IMG/VR virus record: IMGVR_UViG_3300042363_000275
Location: 1 to 64,000 of that record
DNA: 64,000 nt
Origin: a virus
Taxonomy: Duplodnaviria > Caudoviricetes
Reading direction: 5' to 3' (one strand)
The notes beneath the pieces were generated by a model. The model worked only from the letters and a program-made list of their open reading frames with translations. It had not been told where the DNA came from and did no database searches. Position 1 is the stretch's first letter. Each line of letters opens with the position of its first letter. The position numbers and the translations under genes were made by a program. Positions 1,516-6,910 of the stretch are shown here, piece by piece.

Positions 1516-1591
1516 TGGTAGCGGGGGGTGGCTCTGCCCCACCGACATCAGGATTATGAGTCCCGCACTCTGCTAACTGAGTTACCCCGCA
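1516..1591 (-). tRNA. tRNA-Met(CAT), probably initiator, atypical T-loop
   Basis: Cloverleaf; CT-CAT-AA loop; 1:72 mismatch; encoded CCA; T-loop GGCAGAG. Confidence 0.75.
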
Positions 1592-1606
1592 ATTTCAATT
1601 CTATCT

Positions 1607-1723
1607 CTATTTAGGTTTCTGTTCTTCTTTCTTCTTTCCGAAGATGCGCTCCCAGCTATCATCAAACTGTTTGCGCGGAACACTCAATGGTCTAGGCTTG
1701 CTTCCTTTGCCGCCAGTACTCAT
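1607..1723 (-). CDS. Small hypothetical protein, 38 aa (MSTGGKGSKPRPLSVPRKQFDDSWERIFGKK...)
   Basis: Translated by hand; ATGA overlap with the HNH gene. Confidence 0.55.
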   Translation of the reverse strand: MSTGGKGSKPRPLSVPRKQFDDSWERIFGKKKEEQKPK

Positions 1724-2292
1724 GATACATTTCTCCAAACACGACTGTTCTTTGGAATGCTTGCCTTTAGATATTCCATTTGATCAGCAAGCACTCTACG
1801 ATTCTTCAGCAAGATTCTTTCATGAACAGTCGGCGCATAAGGAACATAGAGAAGATGCATCTTGGCTTCTTCTGGAGTCTTCCATCCCTTACGGTGATTA
1901 CATGTACGGCATGCTGTTACGCAATTAGTCCAGTGATTGCTACCACCACGCGACTTCGGATGAACATGGTCAATCGTCAATTGACTCGTGCTGAATTCAT
2001 TTCCACAATATGCACATAGATGCTGGTCTCGAGCATACAATGTCATGCGATCGGCGAACACTGTTTGTGTGTTGTAGAATTTATCACCAAGCAATGGACC
2101 ACTCACACCAATGATGCAAGAGATGTCAATGCGTGACTGTTCACCATGCTCATTGTGTCCACCAAGCATGGTTTTCATCTTCTCGCCCAATTCCCAGATA
2201 ACCTTCTTCTTGGCATAATAACATGTTGCCATTTCGAAGTTTACCCAGTCTTTAGGCATACCACCTTTGTCTACAACTAACACTAACGACAT
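1720..2292 (-). CDS. HNH endonuclease (McrA-like, CxxC zinc knuckles)
   Basis: CAYCG..TIDHVHPKSRGG..NCVTACRTCNHRKG. Confidence 0.9.
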   Translation of the reverse strand: MSLVLVVDKGGMPKDWVNFEMATCYYAKKKVIWELGEKMKTMLGGHNEHGEQSRIDISCIIGVSGPLLGDKFYNTQTVFADRMTLYARDQHLCAYCGNEFSTSQLTIDHVHPKSRGGSNHWTNCVTACRTCNHRKGWKTPEEAKMHLLYVPYAPTVHERILLKNRRVLADQMEYLKASIPKNSRVWRNVS

Positions 2293-2312
2293 ATTCTCCT
2301 CTACATTATATA

Positions 2313-2389
2313 TGGTGCCTTCGGACAGATTCGAACTGTCACTGATTAGTTCCTAAGACTAACGCCTCTGCCAGTTGGGCTACGAAGGC
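2313..2389 (-). tRNA. tRNA-Leu(TAG) with short variable loop
   Basis: TTAGT-CT-TAG-GA-ACTAA; TTCGAAT T-loop; A73-CCA. Confidence 0.9.
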
Positions 2390-2395
2390 AAAATT

Positions 2396-2485
2396 TGGCG
2401 GAAGCGGAAGGATTCGAACCTTCGTGACCCGTTAAGATCTGCTTGTTTTCAAGACAAGTGCAATCATCCACTCTGCCACGCTTCC
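2396..2485 (-). tRNA. tRNA-Ser(TGA)
   Basis: CTTGT-CT-TGA-AA-ACAAG; long variable arm; G73-CCA. Confidence 0.95.
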
Positions 2486-2808
2486 TAATTGTTTAGTTTA
2501 TTATATTCCTTCCTGACGAACGAGTCAAGTGCATCTACAATCTTTCTAATTCTATATATTTGATTACCACCAGTTGATTCCAAAGTTTCTGCTTTTAAAG
2601 CATGCAGCATCATCTCAAGATCGTATCCTGAGATTTCTTTTGCTCTAATTTTTACTAATAGATTTCTGTATGCTTTTGCCTGTGGATATACTTGTGAGTT
2701 GTATGAGAAGCCAGATGCTGATGCACCTTTGTTTTCCAACGCATCACATAGCATATCTACATGTGGTTGAAGATCTTCGAATTTAAATTTTTTCGGAGCA
2801 TCGCTCAT
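2485..2808 (-). CDS. Hypothetical protein
   Basis: ORF track; ATGA overlap. Confidence 0.6.
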   Translation of the reverse strand: MSDAPKKFKFEDLQPHVDMLCDALENKGASASGFSYNSQVYPQAKAYRNLLVKIRAKEISGYDLEMMLHALKAETLESTGGNQIYRIRKIVDALDSFVRKEYNKLNN

Positions 2809-2987
2809 ACTTCAGATTTAACTGGACCCCACTTTCCAACAGGGCACTTTGTATTTGCCCATTGTGTTTTAAGTTTAAGAATACAGCCACACTTTCTGCA
2901 AACACTGAGTTTGTTGTGTTCGCAGGTTGCGCAGATATTCATTCGTTCCTGTTGAATCTCTGGTGTTGTTCTTAAATTGTCAAACAT
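2805..2987 (-). CDS. Small Cys-rich protein (DUF6171-like)
   Basis: RxxICxxC..CxxCGC..CPxGKW pattern. Confidence 0.6.
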   Translation of the reverse strand: MFDNLRTTPEIQQERMNICATCEHNKLSVCRKCGCILKLKTQWANTKCPVGKWGPVKSEV

Positions 2988-3002
2988 AACACTTCTCTAA
3001 AT

Positions 3003-3076
3003 TGGAGCGGGATGAGAGAATCGAACTCTCGACCGAAGATTGGAAATCTGCTGTTTTACCATTAAACTAATCCCGC
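3003..3076 (-). tRNA. tRNA-Gly(TCC)
   Basis: TT-TCC-AA loop; T73-CCA. Confidence 0.95.
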
Positions 3077-3080
3077 ATTC

Positions 3081-3165
3081 TGGTGCGACTGGTCGGACTC
3101 GAACCGACATTCCTAACGGAGGCAGATTTTAAGTCTGCTGCGGATACCGATTTCGCCACAGTCGC
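3081..3165 (-). tRNA. tRNA-Leu(TAA)
   Basis: GCAGA-CT-TAA-AA-TCTGC; long variable arm; CCA. Confidence 0.95.
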
Positions 3166-3170
3166 AAAAA

Positions 3171-3749
3171 TTACTTCAACGACTCCATAATGTCATTGTA
3201 TACTTGATCTTGCTTGTCATGTACAAGTTCCCAAATATTCTCAGACCAAAGTTCATTATAAACTTCACTCTGTTCTTCTTGATCAAGTTCCTTGAGCGAC
3301 GGAACCATCTGCTCCATCATCTCTGTGATTTCGCCGTCTTCACCCCACTCACATCCATCAATCATTCCATCTTTGTTGTAAACATATACACCAAAGAAGT
3401 TTGGCATTTCGTCTTCATACATGACGGACGCGATGAAGTCGGGGTCAACAGAAACAATCTGCTCAAAGAGCCACTCTAATCCTGCTTGCGGAAAACTCCA
3501 AGCAGAAACTGTATTGAAATAATCTTCACCACGATCTTCGAAGTAACACCACTTCGGTCCAATGTTTTCTAAATTCCAGTCATACTTATCTGTAATTTCT
3601 GGATCAAGACCGAAGATGTCACTGAACCACTCATAAATGACTGCTTTGTCAGATCCAGTTCGAACGCGCGAGTATAGTTCTTGCAACTTTGCTTTGCCAG
3701 CATCGTTGAGTTTCTCAAAACGAACATGAGTGTTTACATGATTTGCCAT
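3171..3749 (-). CDS. Hypothetical protein, YubB/DUF1281 ferredoxin-like resemblance
   Basis: [18 protein letters not shown] resembles the YDW..NWGTKW..TAWSPP motif. Confidence 0.55.
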
Positions 3750-3767
3750 AATATATCCTCAATAAAA

Positions 3768-3844
3768 TGGTCGGACAGAGAGGATTCGAACCTCCGACCC
3801 TCTGCTCCCAAAGCAGATGCACTACCAGGCTGTGCTACTGTCCG
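3768..3844 (-). tRNA. tRNA-Pro(TGG)
   Basis: TCTGC-TT-TGG-GA-GCAGA; CCA. Confidence 0.95.
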
Positions 3845-3855
3845 ATTGTTTATAT

Positions 3856-3884
3856 ATTATACTATATCTAGTCACAAAAGTAAA
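3856..3884 (-). promoter_or_regulatory. Internal early-type promoter (TTTACT-17-TATAAT)
   Basis: Hexamers with 17-nt spacing upstream of tRNA-Pro. Confidence 0.7.
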
Positions 3885-3885
3885 G

Positions 3886-3962
3886 TGGTGGGACCACTTG
3901 GACTTGAACCAAGAATCAACAAATTATGAGTTTGCTGCATTAACCAATTATGCTATAGTCCC
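3886..3962 (-). tRNA. tRNA-Ile2(CAT), lysidine type
   Basis: CT-CAT-AA loop; overall resemblance to E. coli ileX-type tRNA; CCA. Confidence 0.8.
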
Positions 3963-3967
3963 AAGAG

Positions 3968-4058
3968 TGGTCCTTGTCCTGGGTAACGATCCCAGCCGTG
4001 AACGGTAATCTGCCGCTAAAGAGTTTATAAATCTCTCCTGCACCCTGTGCTGACAAGG
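3968..4058 (-). tRNA. Atypical tRNA with TAT anticodon, long variable arm and 3-nt D-loop
   Basis: Acceptor CCTTGTC/GACAAGG; TT-TAT-AA loop; T-arm CTGGG-ATCGTTA-CCCAG; A73-CCA. Confidence 0.7.
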
Positions 4059-4075
4059 ATATTGTTCAATAAAAA

Positions 4076-4151
4076 TGGCACGCTCGGCAGGATTCGAACC
4101 TGCGACCCCAAACTTAGAAGGTTTGTGTTCTATCCCCTGAACTACGAGCGC
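4076..4151 (-). tRNA. tRNA-Arg(TCT)
   Basis: CAAAC-CT-TCT-AA-GTTTG; CCA. Confidence 0.95.
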
Positions 4152-4155
4152 AAAA

Positions 4156-4243
4156 TGGCGGAAGGCAGTGTACTCGAAACACATTCCTGTTTAGGAACAT
4201 TTTGTTTAGCAAACAAATGTGAACCCTGTTCACTTTACCTTCC
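4156..4243 (-). tRNA. tRNA-Ser(GCT)
   Basis: TT-GCT-AA loop; long variable arm; G73-CCA; D-arm GTGAAC-AGG-GTTCAC. Confidence 0.9.
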
Positions 4244-4247
4244 AATA

Positions 4248-4324
4248 TGGCGACTCGGATGGGACTTGAACCCACGACCTCATGCGTGACAGGCATGTGA
4301 ACTAACCAACTGTTCTACCGAGCC
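4248..4324 (-). tRNA. tRNA-Asp(GTC)
   Basis: CATGC-CT-GTC-AC-GCATG; CCA. Confidence 0.95.
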
Positions 4325-4328
4325 AAAA

Positions 4329-4403
4329 TGGAGCAGGATATCGGATTCGAACCGATGGCATTCTCGTTGGCAACGAGACATTCTACCACTGAATTAATCC
4401 TGC
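4329..4403 (-). tRNA. tRNA-Gly(GCC)
   Basis: TT-GCC-AA loop; CCA. Confidence 0.95.
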
Positions 4404-4407
4404 GAAA

Positions 4408-4481
4408 TGGTGGATCCAAAAGGTAACGCTCCTTTGTCTTTCGATTATCAGTCGAATGTACTTCTTTTGTACTATGGATCC
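4408..4481 (-). tRNA. tRNA-Ile(GAT), atypical D- and T-loops
   Basis: TTCGA-CT-GAT-AA-TCGAA; D-loop AAAAGAA; T-loop AGCGTTA; CCA. Confidence 0.85.
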
Positions 4482-4487
4482 GAAATG

Positions 4488-4564
4488 TGGCACCCCATGA
4501 AGGACTTGAACCTCCGACCTCGATGTCCGTAGCATCGCGTTCTAATCCACTGAACTAATGAGGC
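4488..4564 (-). tRNA. tRNA-Arg(ACG)
   Basis: CGATG-CT-ACG-GA-CATCG; CCA. Confidence 0.95.
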
Positions 4565-4650
4565 GTAATAAATCCCAGTCGATCCACCCTGGATCTTCTC
4601 TCGCTTCTGGGTGCAGCGCTACCGATTAACGATGGTAGAACCGTCGCGAT

Positions 4651-4725
4651 TGGTGCCAAGTGTTGGTATCGCGCCAACCTATCAAGTTCTTCAGACTTGC
4701 GCTAATCTATCTCAGCTAACTTGGC
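4651..4725 (-). tRNA. tRNA-Phe(GAA), atypical T-loop
   Basis: CAAGT-CT-GAA-GA-ACTTG; T-loop CGCGATA; CCA. Confidence 0.85.
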
Positions 4726-4842
4726 GAATTCTTTTACAGGGCAGACCTTTGTTACCTGTCTATGTGCGTACGACACCAACTGCGTTGTTAAGTTATCGCA
4801 ATGTGGAAGGGTAATTACTCCTATTCATTGCTTTTTACAAAT

Positions 4843-4917
4843 TGGAGTGACAGACTGGACTCGAACCAGCATGAAGAAGTTTTGCAGACTTCTGCCTGAC
4901 CTTTCAGCCACCGTCAC
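4843..4917 (-). tRNA. tRNA-Cys(GCA)
   Basis: GAAGT-CT-GCA-AA-ACTTC; T73-CCA. Confidence 0.95.
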
Positions 4918-4926
4918 ATGTTAAAA

Positions 4927-5002
4927 TGGTAGAAACAGTGAGACTCGAACTCACGATAAACACCGTATGAAGGTGGCGCATTAGCCGCTATGCTATGTTT
5001 CT
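4927..5002 (-). tRNA. tRNA-Met(CAT), elongator type
   Basis: TT-CAT-AC loop; paired 1:72; CCA. Confidence 0.8.
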
Positions 5003-5006
5003 ATAT

Positions 5007-5081
5007 TGGGGTGATGACTGGGACTCGAACCCAGATATACCAGGATCACAACCTGGGGACTTACCATTAGTCAACCATCAC
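5007..5081 (-). tRNA. tRNA-His(GTG)
   Basis: CCAGG-TT-GTG-AT-CCTGG; C73-CCA. Confidence 0.95.
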
Positions 5082-5086
5082 ATAAT

Positions 5087-5189
5087 TGGTGGACTGTGTG
5101 GGTAACACTACCACAGTGGCTAGTTTGTTTCTTACAGCCCATTCTATCTTGTTATAGGGACTACCAACCTTCACTGTCTAACTCAGCCC
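5087..5189 (-). ncRNA. tRNA-like RNA with alanine-type acceptor (G3:U70, A73, CCA) and no canonical anticodon loop
   Basis: 5' GGGCTG pairs with 3' CAGTCC-A-CCA; T-arm-like TGTGG..CCACA; spaced like the neighbouring tRNAs. Confidence 0.6.
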
Positions 5190-5195
5190 AAAGAA

Positions 5196-5254
5196 TGGCG
5201 GCATTCACTTTCGTCTTCCGTGCAGAACCAAGCGCACGGACCTGGCTGAATGCC
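5196..5254 (-). ncRNA. 59-nt armless tRNA-like RNA ending in GCCA
   Basis: 8-bp stem GGCATTCA/TGAATGCC plus G-CCA; internal stem TCCGTGC/GCACGGA. Confidence 0.6.
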
Positions 5255-5258
5255 TAAT

Positions 5259-5404
5259 TGGTGTGACAGGGTAGGAGTCGAACCTACATAACCATAGACC
5301 TGCGCAGGTCATTTTGGTGCCAGGCTCACTGACTGGCGTGACTCTCCAAGAGTTTATTCGACATAACTCTATTCTTCACCGCCTGCACATTGTACAAACA
5401 TCAC
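5259..5404 (-). ncRNA. 130-146-nt multi-hairpin tRNA-like RNA with canonical T-arm and CCA
   Basis: GTAGG-TTCGACT-CCTAC T-arm; ..TGTCAC-A-CCA end; internal hairpins AGAGTT/AACTCT, GCCAG/CTGGC, GACCT/AGGTC. Confidence 0.6.
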
Positions 5405-5409
5405 ATAAT

Positions 5410-5496
5410 TGGTGGACAGGGCTAGATTCGAACTAGCGTAACCCATTGGGTGATTGATTTACAGTCAATTGGATTTAACCACTCTCCCACCTGTCC
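5410..5496 (-). tRNA. tRNA-Tyr(GTA)
   Basis: ATTGA-CT-GTA-AA-TCAAT; long variable arm; CCA. Confidence 0.95.
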
Positions 5497-5501
5497 AAAA
5501 A

Positions 5502-5575
5502 TGGCTGAGGGACCTGGACTCGAACCAGGACTCTCTGGGTCAAAGCCAGATGATCTGCCATTAATCTATCCCTCA
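5502..5575 (-). tRNA. tRNA-Gln(TTG)
   Basis: TCTGG-CT-TTG-AC-CCAGA; CCA. Confidence 0.95.
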
Positions 5576-5582
5576 AAAAAGA

Positions 5583-5691
5583 TTTGCTGCTTGCACTCTA
5601 TGCTATCGACTCAACTGCTTTACAATTGATTACAGTTTATTGTGATAGTTACATAACGCTCGATCTAGCCTCTGGGCTTACAAGCAACAAA
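5583..5691 (-). ncRNA. Candidate structured ncRNA between tRNA-Val and tRNA-Gln
   Basis: 13-bp closing stem TTTGTTGCTTGTA/TGCAAGCAGCAAA with two G-U pairs; inner stems AGCC/GGCT, ATCGA/TCGAT, AACTG/CAGTT. Confidence 0.45.
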
Positions 5692-5693
5692 AT

Positions 5694-5769
5694 TGGTACT
5701 CGGTGACGGGTTCGAACCGCCGACATTCTGGATGTAAACCAGACACTCTACCAACTGAGTTAACCGAGC
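5694..5769 (-). tRNA. tRNA-Val(TAC)
   Basis: TCTGG-TT-TAC-AT-CCAGA; CCA. Confidence 0.95.
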
Positions 5770-5773
5770 AAAA

Positions 5774-5848
5774 TGGTGGACCGTGGGAGAATCGAACTCC
5801 CTTCTCTGCGATGCAAACGCAGCATAATACCCAGTATACTAACAGCCC
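5774..5848 (-). tRNA. tRNA-Ala(TGC)
   Basis: TT-TGC-AT loop; G3:U70; A73-CCA. Confidence 0.95.
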
Positions 5849-5853
5849 AAAAA

Positions 5854-5928
5854 TGGCTGGCGCGGGTGGGATCGAACCACCGACAGGCTGATTAACAGTC
5901 AGCTGATCTACCGCTGATCTACGCGCCA
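5854..5928 (-). tRNA. tRNA-Asn(GTT)
   Basis: GCTGA-CT-GTT-AA-TCAGC; CCA. Confidence 0.95.
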
Positions 5929-6036
5929 AAATAGCTGCGGTGTAAGTAACCACCGCTCCTGCTCTTTTCTTTAGGTAGAGTCACACACCGTATCCCATTA
6001 TTAAGTGCGGGAGTTCTCACACTATGCATTAGGAAA

Positions 6037-6110
6037 TGGCATCCCGCCACAGAATCGAACTGCGACCAAGAGTTTTGGAGACTCGTATGCTACCACTACA
6101 CCAGCGGGAA
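6037..6110 (-). tRNA. tRNA-Trp(CCA)
   Basis: CT-CCA-AA loop; G73-CCA. Confidence 0.9.
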
Positions 6111-6122
6111 ACAATCACAAAA

Positions 6123-6196
6123 TGGTAGGAGTAGAGGGAATCGAACCCTCGTCGAAGGATTAAAAGTCCTATGCTAGACCTTCCAGCTATACTCCC
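6123..6196 (-). tRNA. tRNA-Lys(TTT)
   Basis: CT-TTT-AA loop; CCA. Confidence 0.95.
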
Positions 6197-6214
6197 AAAA
6201 AACATAACAAAAAT

Positions 6215-6290
6215 TGGTGGGTCTAACAGGATTCGAACCTGTATCAAACTGGGTAAGAGCCAGATATAATTGCCATTATACGATAGACCC
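6215..6290 (-). tRNA. tRNA-Lys(CTT)
   Basis: CT-CTT-AC loop; CCA. Confidence 0.9.
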
Positions 6291-6295
6291 GAAAT

Positions 6296-6370
6296 TGGCG
6301 TTCCCTACGAGATTCGAACTCGTGTACTCACCGTGAAAGGGTGACATCCTGACCGCTAGATGAAGGGAAC
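6296..6370 (-). tRNA. tRNA-Glu(TTC)
   Basis: TCACC-CT-TTC-AC-GGTGA; CCA. Confidence 0.95.
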
Positions 6371-6380
6371 ATAAAAACCA

Positions 6381-6462
6381 TATTGAAACACACTAGAAGT
6401 AATATTAACGACCTTTACTTTTATCACTGGGACGGTCAAGCAGGGTCTAATGTGCTTCAATA
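6381..6462 (-). ncRNA. Candidate structured ncRNA between tRNA-Thr and tRNA-Glu
   Basis: 17-bp closing stem TATTGAAGCACATTAGA/TCTAGTGTGTTTCAATA with two G-U pairs; inner GACC/GGTC. Confidence 0.45.
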
Positions 6463-6537
6463 TGGTGCCTCCACTCGGAATCGAACTGAGTTCTCAGGCT
6501 TACAAAACCCGTGCATCACCATTTATGCTTTGAAGGC
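6463..6537 (-). tRNA. tRNA-Thr(TGT)
   Basis: CGGGT-TT-TGT-AA-GCCTG; CCA. Confidence 0.95.
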
Positions 6538-6682: not shown

Positions 6683-6743
6683 ATTATACCGCTACAAGAG
6701 TCGAAAGTAAAACATAAAAAACTTTAATAAAATCAATAACTTA
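6683..6743 (-). promoter_or_regulatory. tRNA-operon promoter (TTTACT-17-TATAAT) with upstream IHF-consensus box
   Basis: Hexamers at 6706-6711 and 6683-6688; AATCAATAACTTA at 6731-6743. Confidence 0.75.
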
Positions 6744-6910
6744 CGAAGTCCCTCACAAAAGGTCGCTGTTTTCAAGTGCGAGAGGGAAACTCATAGGCAC
6801 TTTAAGACTTCAAGTCCTACCTCAAGAAAATGAGGGCGTCGCGAATCACGCTAGAAATTGCTGTACTTATAGTGTATTATATAGTACAATTCAAACAAAA
6901 TCAAACAAAA

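Follow-up and report, generated by a model that had tools for sequence, protein, structure and literature searches.

The tRNA arrays of phages are commonly regarded as sets of tRNAs that serve codon supply or counter-defence. RNAs that are not tRNAs can be encoded there too, as in the tRNA cluster of T4, where the stable species 1 and species 2 RNAs (rnaC and rnaD) are co-transcribed with the tRNAs and matured by host tRNA enzymes; these RNAs, 120-140 nt in length and conserved among T4-like phages, are dispensable and of unknown function. Synthetic minihelices and microhelices serve as substrates of aminoacyl-tRNA synthetases, efficient charging being best known for the alanine helix with its G3.U70 pair, and the armless mitochondrial tRNAs of enoplean nematodes have a 5-bp anticodon stem and a 7-nt loop, are encoded without CCA and function with mitochondrial factors specialised for them. 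Simple hairpins are also processed by RNase P: model substrates with a hairpin loop are cut at the correct site by the E. coli RNase P RNA, which makes use of their RCCA end, and the hairpin-shaped pre-4.5S RNA is a natural substrate of the enzyme (PMC11143913).

The RNA described here was found in an uncultivated freshwater phage. The window, by which the whole analysed stretch of 64,000 nt is meant, lies within a 74.9-kb IMG/VR contig that is ~45% complete, and a fully assembled relative of this phage measures 173 kb. A tRNA operon occupies positions 1519..6537 on the minus strand, with 24 tRNAs called by ARAGORN and 2 extra tRNAs found by Rfam only; the only promoter-like sites upstream of the array on its strand are located at 6683-6711 and 6876-6904. 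All 20 amino acids are already covered by the 24 ARAGORN tRNAs together with the Rfam-only tRNA read as Phe. The CCA is encoded and the flanks are A/T-rich in 25/25 listed array tRNAs, the spacers being mostly 4-6 nt long and A/T-rich, and no gene for a CCA-adding enzyme (PF01743) was found in the 75-kb record, which represents ~45% of the genome.

Four minus-strand units missed by ARAGORN were picked up through Rfam or an acceptor-stem scan, namely tRNA-Phe(GAA) (4651-4725), a tRNA at 1519-1591, an 88-nt Ser(GCT)-like class II tRNA (4156-4243) and a 91-nt class II-like unit (3968-4058). Gene order and inserts vary greatly among the arrays of this phage group, in which HNH endonuclease ORFs are also inserted (1720-2292 in the window). 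A 118-nt structured spacer between tRNA-Val and tRNA-Gln (window 5576-5693, minus strand) is 90-96% conserved in the related loci L264, L268, L297 and L299; as it follows tRNA-Ala there, it moves as a unit within arrays. In L264, a close relative, tRNA-Gln and a second tRNA-Tyr gene, Tyr-2, are separated by a small inserted ORF (1655-2095, plus strand), which is Cys-rich and has a strong ribosome-binding site.

Between the tRNA-Tyr and tRNA-His genes of the window, a 323-nt insert carries three non-canonical CCA-ended units, A, B and C, of which the middle one, B (5196..5254, minus strand), is a 59-nt RNA devoid of D- and T-arms. The 5' strand of its terminal, acceptor-like stem (5247..5254) pairs with the 3' strand (5200..5207) through 8 Watson-Crick pairs with no mismatch (5254-5247 with 5207-5200). 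A joint of 6 nt (5246-5241) leads to an inner hairpin of 8 pairs (5217..5240), in which 7 Watson-Crick pairs and a closing G.U (5240-5233 with 5224-5217) carry a loop of 8 nt (5232-5225), or of 10 nt with the G.U pair open, and a second joint of 9 nt (5216-5208) leads back to the terminal stem. The molecule finishes with a discriminator G (5199) and an encoded CCA (5198-5196), together 5196..5199, so that the bases at its end are G1-C72, G2-C71, C3-G70 and G73, followed by CCA. The spacer ATTA (5255..5258) separates G1 from the CCA of A by 4 nt, and the spacer TTCTTT (5190..5195) places C 6 nt after the CCA of B, both on the minus strand. These A/T-rich distances of 4 and 6 nt fall within the 4-6 nt of the array, as had been proposed from the letters alone.

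RNAfold returned exactly this two-stem fold for B, with -24.6 kcal/mol and 30% of the ensemble (z = -2.38 versus shuffles), and the same fold was retained when the surrounding block of 328 nt was folded whole. As a chance test, dinucleotide shuffling was applied 3000 times to the block, or to all nine spacers of the array. Of these trials, 0.7-0.9% yielded a Watson-Crick stem of 8 bp with N-CCA behind it, and 0.03-0.07% yielded this stem and N-CCA together with an inner 7-bp stem. Therefore, the architecture of B is non-random, far beyond chance. The sequence-only reading had given the same sequence, coordinates, perfect 8-bp stem and 7-bp distal stem, and had seen here a two-helix, CCA-ended RNA without D- or T-arm in the slot of a true tRNA; the fold and the frequency of less than 0.1% among shuffles agree with it on all these points. 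By eye, the 5' joint could also form a pseudoknot with the loop of the hairpin (6 pairs including 2 G.U), but this was discarded because its connecting loops would be of zero length.

Compared with a canonical tRNA, B has an acceptor helix, a discriminator and a 3' CCA in a tRNA-gene slot, and it has only two helices, with no D-arm, no T-arm and no 7-nt anticodon loop, the last point being in line with the earlier view that its loop (8-10 nt) is not that of an anticodon. No Rfam family, the tRNA family RF00005 included, matched 5196-5254 even at E ≤ 10, in keeping with the earlier statement that no established bacterial or phage equivalent is known. ARAGORN in bacterial mode did not call B at the default or at the 80% threshold; in its metazoan-mitochondrial mode (-mt) it found 0 genes on B at default, and the calls obtained with relaxed thresholds were out of the frame of B. 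An acceptor/T-arm minihelix, in which a 5-bp T-stem with a 7-nt T-loop is stacked on the acceptor stem, is not formed either, the inner hairpin being offset from the terminal helix by the 6/9-nt internal loop, and by eye the loop does not fit the T-loop pattern. The inner stem was also considered as the apical motif of an SRP RNA, which was ruled out as no SRP match was obtained at E ≤ 10.

B lies between tRNA genes and on their strand, without a supported ORF or a promoter or terminator of its own, as would a non-tRNA RNA of a phage tRNA cluster. No promoter-like or terminator-like sites were detected within or beside it, the nearest signals being, on the tRNA strand, a promoter-like site (4659-4632) and, on the plus strand, a hairpin resembling a terminator within A (5297-5310). 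The single ORF across B is a plus-strand frame of 53 aa without a Pfam match.

Similarity to tRNAs was low. The acceptor stem of B was compared with those of 517 tRNAs from relatives, the best of which still showed 5/14 mismatches, and when B was aligned locally with 538 distinct tRNAs, the top score was 28, not significant against a null range of 23-33. The alignments to Ser tRNAs were marginal (9 and 18 of 500 shuffles scored as well), and an ancestry from tRNA-Ser(TGA) was dismissed when this match was lost after correction over the 538 tRNAs. B and the tRNA-Ser(TGA) of the phage have in common the 5' flank CAATTA, the first GG and the G-CCA end. With regard to an RNA anti-CRISPR, which would mimic a solitary CRISPR repeat, two patterns of the inner hairpin, exact or loose, were searched in GTDB genomes and gave single scattered matches, with no array-like multiples.

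No homologue of B was detected among GenBank phages by megablast and blastn, in IMG/VR with four exact or gapped patterns (stem, hairpin and loop-anchored), or in JGI metagenome contigs with one pattern. The matches of the palindromic stem pattern in IMG/VR, at least 117, were all due to chance, and the 4 matches of the strict pattern in GTDB lay in unrelated GC-rich coding DNA, about the number expected by chance according to our own estimate. A single-sequence covariance model (R1), run over 34 records of related viruses and 99 related loci, matched B only (95 bits), and B was absent from ~115 related arrays. The sequence-only reading had named the lack of a discrete product and of homologues with compensatory changes as what would count against it; on the second of these, only copies 100% identical to B were found, and none with compensatory changes.

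Short G-initiated units made of a 7-bp stem and N-CCA were rare among the 287 inter-tRNA gaps of relatives and distant jumbo relatives, consisting of B, the minihelix of C, a 40-nt unit in L362 and the GGTCGTT family. The unit of L362 (G027:C1, minus strand of the locus), a distant relative of 235 kb, is an armless 40-nt hairpin with an 8-bp terminal stem followed by A and CCA, located 2 nt upstream of tRNA-Gly(TCC) and unrelated to B in sequence. The conserved 56-58-nt GGTCGTT...ACCA unit of relatives is similar to B in length and in its 3' motif, but was rejected as a homologue because a larger conserved pairing encloses its CCA. It belongs to a conserved ORF-free region of ~300-370 nt which many relatives have between tRNA-Ala and tRNA-Val or tRNA-Gln and which the window does not have (L115:2225-2595, L122:2342-2397, L282:2806-2863, L272:1827-1901, L309:3128-3240 and L264:1294-1560). 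In this region, which has no Rfam match, the GGTCGTT...GTGACC-ACCA unit measures 56-113 nt owing to insertions at one site, and the CTCCCTG/CAGGGAG pairing spans the CCA of the unit.

In the closest relatives (L111/L348, L346, L349, L262 and L351), whose flanks are 92-99% identical to those of the window, the 323 nt are absent and tRNA-Tyr is joined straight to tRNA-His by a single repeat sequence; in further relatives, other genes again follow tRNA-Tyr. Identity between L351 and the window is 92.5% upstream of this joint and 98.8% downstream, and the jump, which falls exactly here, places the block at a mosaic boundary and marks a recombination joint within the tRNA array. Four contigs from other samples (carrier samples JGI 3300042483, 3300042389, 3300043436 and 3300042154), found through the exact protein of ORF 3171-3749, carry the block, all of them 100% identical within it and 99.98-100% identical over 5.4 kb, with a single SNP at 3080, outside the block. 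As the identical assembly was recovered in 5 samples (the window and these four), B is not an assembly artefact; the block is real, yet known from one genotype or strain only. The earlier argument that perfect stems speak against a decayed tRNA is weakened by this distribution: the stems are indeed perfect, but all the known copies belong to one 100%-identical strain and the relatives at 92-99% identity have no block, so that B may be young rather than conserved. Its absence from relatives also implies that B is dispensable for this type of phage as a whole.

The block is bracketed by an exact direct repeat of 19 nt, present only twice in the window. On the minus strand, both copies have the spacer ATTAT as their middle part. 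In copy 1 (5399..5417) it is preceded by the final 8 nt of tRNA-Tyr and followed by 6 nt identical to those that open tRNA-His; in copy 2 (5076..5094) it stands between the final 8 nt of C and the initial 6 nt of tRNA-His. Element A (5259..5404, minus strand), which ends in CCA and was not called by ARAGORN, was compared by eye with the Tyr-2 copy of L264 (2106-2192) and ~15 others. By this comparison, A is homologous to this class II tRNA-Tyr of relatives and clearly tRNA-derived. Tyr-2 normally follows tRNA-Gln in many relatives (copies in L264, L122, L268, L272, L281, L282, L284, L297, L303, L318 and L327) and has in common with A the D-stem, the T-arm and a few bases of the 5' flank. In A, moreover, a 24-nt hairpin interrupts the D-loop, the variable arm is enlarged (~28 nt), and the loop at the anticodon position has 9 nt on an intact 5-bp anticodon stem. 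By homology, its acceptor would start near 5383, not at 5404. A search for a donor in IMG/VR with the 3' end of A gave no match. Element C (5087..5189, minus strand) is also CCA-ended and includes a hairpin resembling a T-arm. An alanine-type minihelix makes up the last 54 nt of C (5087-5140); its acceptor stem is a perfect 7 bp, with G3.U70, A73 and CCA, and its first 7 nt are those of the phage tRNA-Ala; the 5' partner GGGCTG is present twice, at 5189 and at 5140. Most stems of both A and C are still paired.

The reading that we tentatively prefer, and which seems quite possible, is that B is an accessory passenger RNA freed by host tRNA processing, a non-decoding mimic of the acceptor end of a tRNA. 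B would be co-transcribed with the tRNAs of the minus-strand operon, RNase P would cut on its 5' side at G5254, and the 3'-trimming exonucleases would stop at the encoded CCA to leave a CCA-ended RNA of ~59 nt. As bacterial RNase P and the 3' exonucleases read ends of this type, a terminal helix of 8 bp with G-CCA behind it, such a release is likely, and the cleavage by RNase P is proposed because hairpin substrates and the use of RCCA have been published for this enzyme (PMC11143913). Without anticodon loop, D-arm and T-arm, B cannot decode; if it acts at all, it would do so by imitating an acceptor end for proteins whose recognition needs no more than a helix and RCCA. The stable fold, the geometry of a tRNA slot, the absence of own signals or ORF, the CCA-ended neighbours and the recurrence in 5 samples suggest the release of B. 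Against it stands the lack of the T-loop normally docked by the specificity domain of RNase P, which makes the efficiency of B as a substrate uncertain; in addition, no homologue was found in the collections searched and the relatives at 92-99% identity do without the block, so that selection is not implied.

The distribution that weakens the case for selection also brings in the main alternative, that B is functionless young debris of the rearrangement that produced the Tyr/His insert, transcribed only through its position in the operon; it would be either what is left of a scrambled tRNA or a hairpin made perfect by a template-switch mutation. This appears unlikely, although several observations are consistent with it: the perfect 19-nt repeat bounds the block at the 92.5% to 98.8% jump of L351, the ~115 related arrays have no block, the neighbour A is a redundant and altered copy of a tRNA-Tyr, and the carriers are one strain differing by the single SNP outside the block, so that perfect stems could reflect youth. 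Debris would hardly be expected to show two perfect stems with an exact N-CCA and tRNA-like spacing, a combination found in <0.1% of shuffles, and B has no significant similarity to the 538 tRNAs, which leaves no recognisable remnant; moreover, the two joints are not complementary, so that a single palindrome-forming event would be insufficient, and A and C have kept most of their pairing as well. The sequence-only reading had proposed that B is a minihelix charged with an amino acid, or else a decoy for toxins that attack tRNAs; the host toxins in view here are above all those acting on the acceptor end. This proposal starts from what B has on offer (G1-C72, G2-C71, G73 and CCA, with flank and ends in common with tRNA-Ser(TGA)). 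The toxin MenT1 is able to modify an acceptor stem in isolation, with its CCA (PMC10435456), toxins of the MenT/AbiEii family have been tied to phage defence by abortive infection (PMC7450476), and a counter-defence role is known for tRNAs carried by phages (PMC11455837). Presence/absence variation among near-identical strains is also typical of accessory counter-defence loci. Even so, we regard this proposal as rather improbable: B has neither the G3.U70 pair that makes minihelices good substrates of AlaRS nor an anticodon loop for anticodon nucleases, and its marginal alignment with Ser tRNAs disappeared after correction over the 538 tRNAs. Charging by SerRS requires, in addition, the geometry of the tRNA elbow and variable arm. 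A wider version takes A-B-C for a mobile cassette of three genes for tRNA mimics that do not decode: a Tyr-like RNA of expanded size (A), an armless helix with G73-CCA (B) and a minihelix of alanine type (C). These would be delivered through the tRNA operon and host processing, with B as a sacrificial acceptor end for host defence enzymes; this version is put forward as a doubtful idea. Its targets would be enzymes that recognise a helix plus CCA, such as nucleotidyltransferases of the MenT/AbiEii type and acceptor-stem nucleases, and a sacrificial role of B would explain its presence or absence between near-identical strains.

Two further readings dispense with the mimicry of an acceptor end. 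In one, B would be a cis-acting hairpin for processing or stability, for example a phage-type RNase III site, and not a released product. Its two 8-bp stems around a 6/9-nt internal loop, 59 nt in total, resemble the early RNase III sites of T7 (R1.1), in which two stems surround an asymmetric internal loop within ~60 nt, and species 1 RNA of T4 is reportedly cleaved by RNase III. However, 16 interrupted pairs are short for this enzyme, neither an exact G-CCA end nor a tRNA-type spacing of 4-6 nt is required for such a site, and the adjacent tRNAs already supply processing points, all of which make a cis-acting site very unlikely. In the other, B would be a working armless tRNA, possibly with its 8-nt loop adapted to a four-base codon. 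The topology of two stems and two connectors and the U at the second loop position are in its favour, but the loop is not one of 7 nt, a purine is missing 3' of the putative anticodon, ARAGORN -mt gave no call, the Rfam tRNA model did not match at E ≤ 10, and the array already serves all 20 amino acids. Since bacterial EF-Tu and ribosomes also require an acceptor/T-arm helix and an elbow, decoding by B can hardly be entertained.

If slot fillers consisting only of an acceptor end are real products, tRNA arrays would also be platforms for the expression and processing of tRNA mimics, and an acceptor-end decoy, if true, would represent a new class of RNA-based counter-defence. B adds one well-formed example without a T-arm, a singleton. 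The block-plus and block-minus genotypes of this phage constitute a natural pair of alleles.

Among the known systems, the similarity with the armless mitochondrial tRNAs of enoplean nematodes, to which B had been likened from its sequence, holds for the topology, with two stems, two short connectors and neither D- nor T-arm. It does not extend to the details, as B has stems of 8 and 8 bp instead of 7 and 5, a loop of 8-10 nt instead of 7 nt and an encoded CCA, and is not called by ARAGORN -mt. Synthetic minihelices and microhelices resemble B in their acceptor helix, discriminator and CCA without anticodon, whereas B has C3-G70 and G73, the helix of alanine type being located in its neighbour C instead. 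RNase P model substrates share with B the terminal helix and the RCCA end, which suffice for correct cleavage by this enzyme, and in B the helix comes directly after a short A/U-rich leader; these substrates stack the acceptor on the T-stem (~12 bp) and carry a T-loop, whereas the helix of B is broken after 8 bp and carries no T-loop. The species 1 and 2 RNAs of T4 are, like B, small non-tRNA RNAs encoded among phage tRNA genes; in contrast to them, B has 59 nt, two helices and a single strain as its source, and a sequence relationship is not expected. By analogy, the T4 species 1 and 2 RNAs and the hairpin substrates of RNase P may be considered the nearest functional precedents of B.
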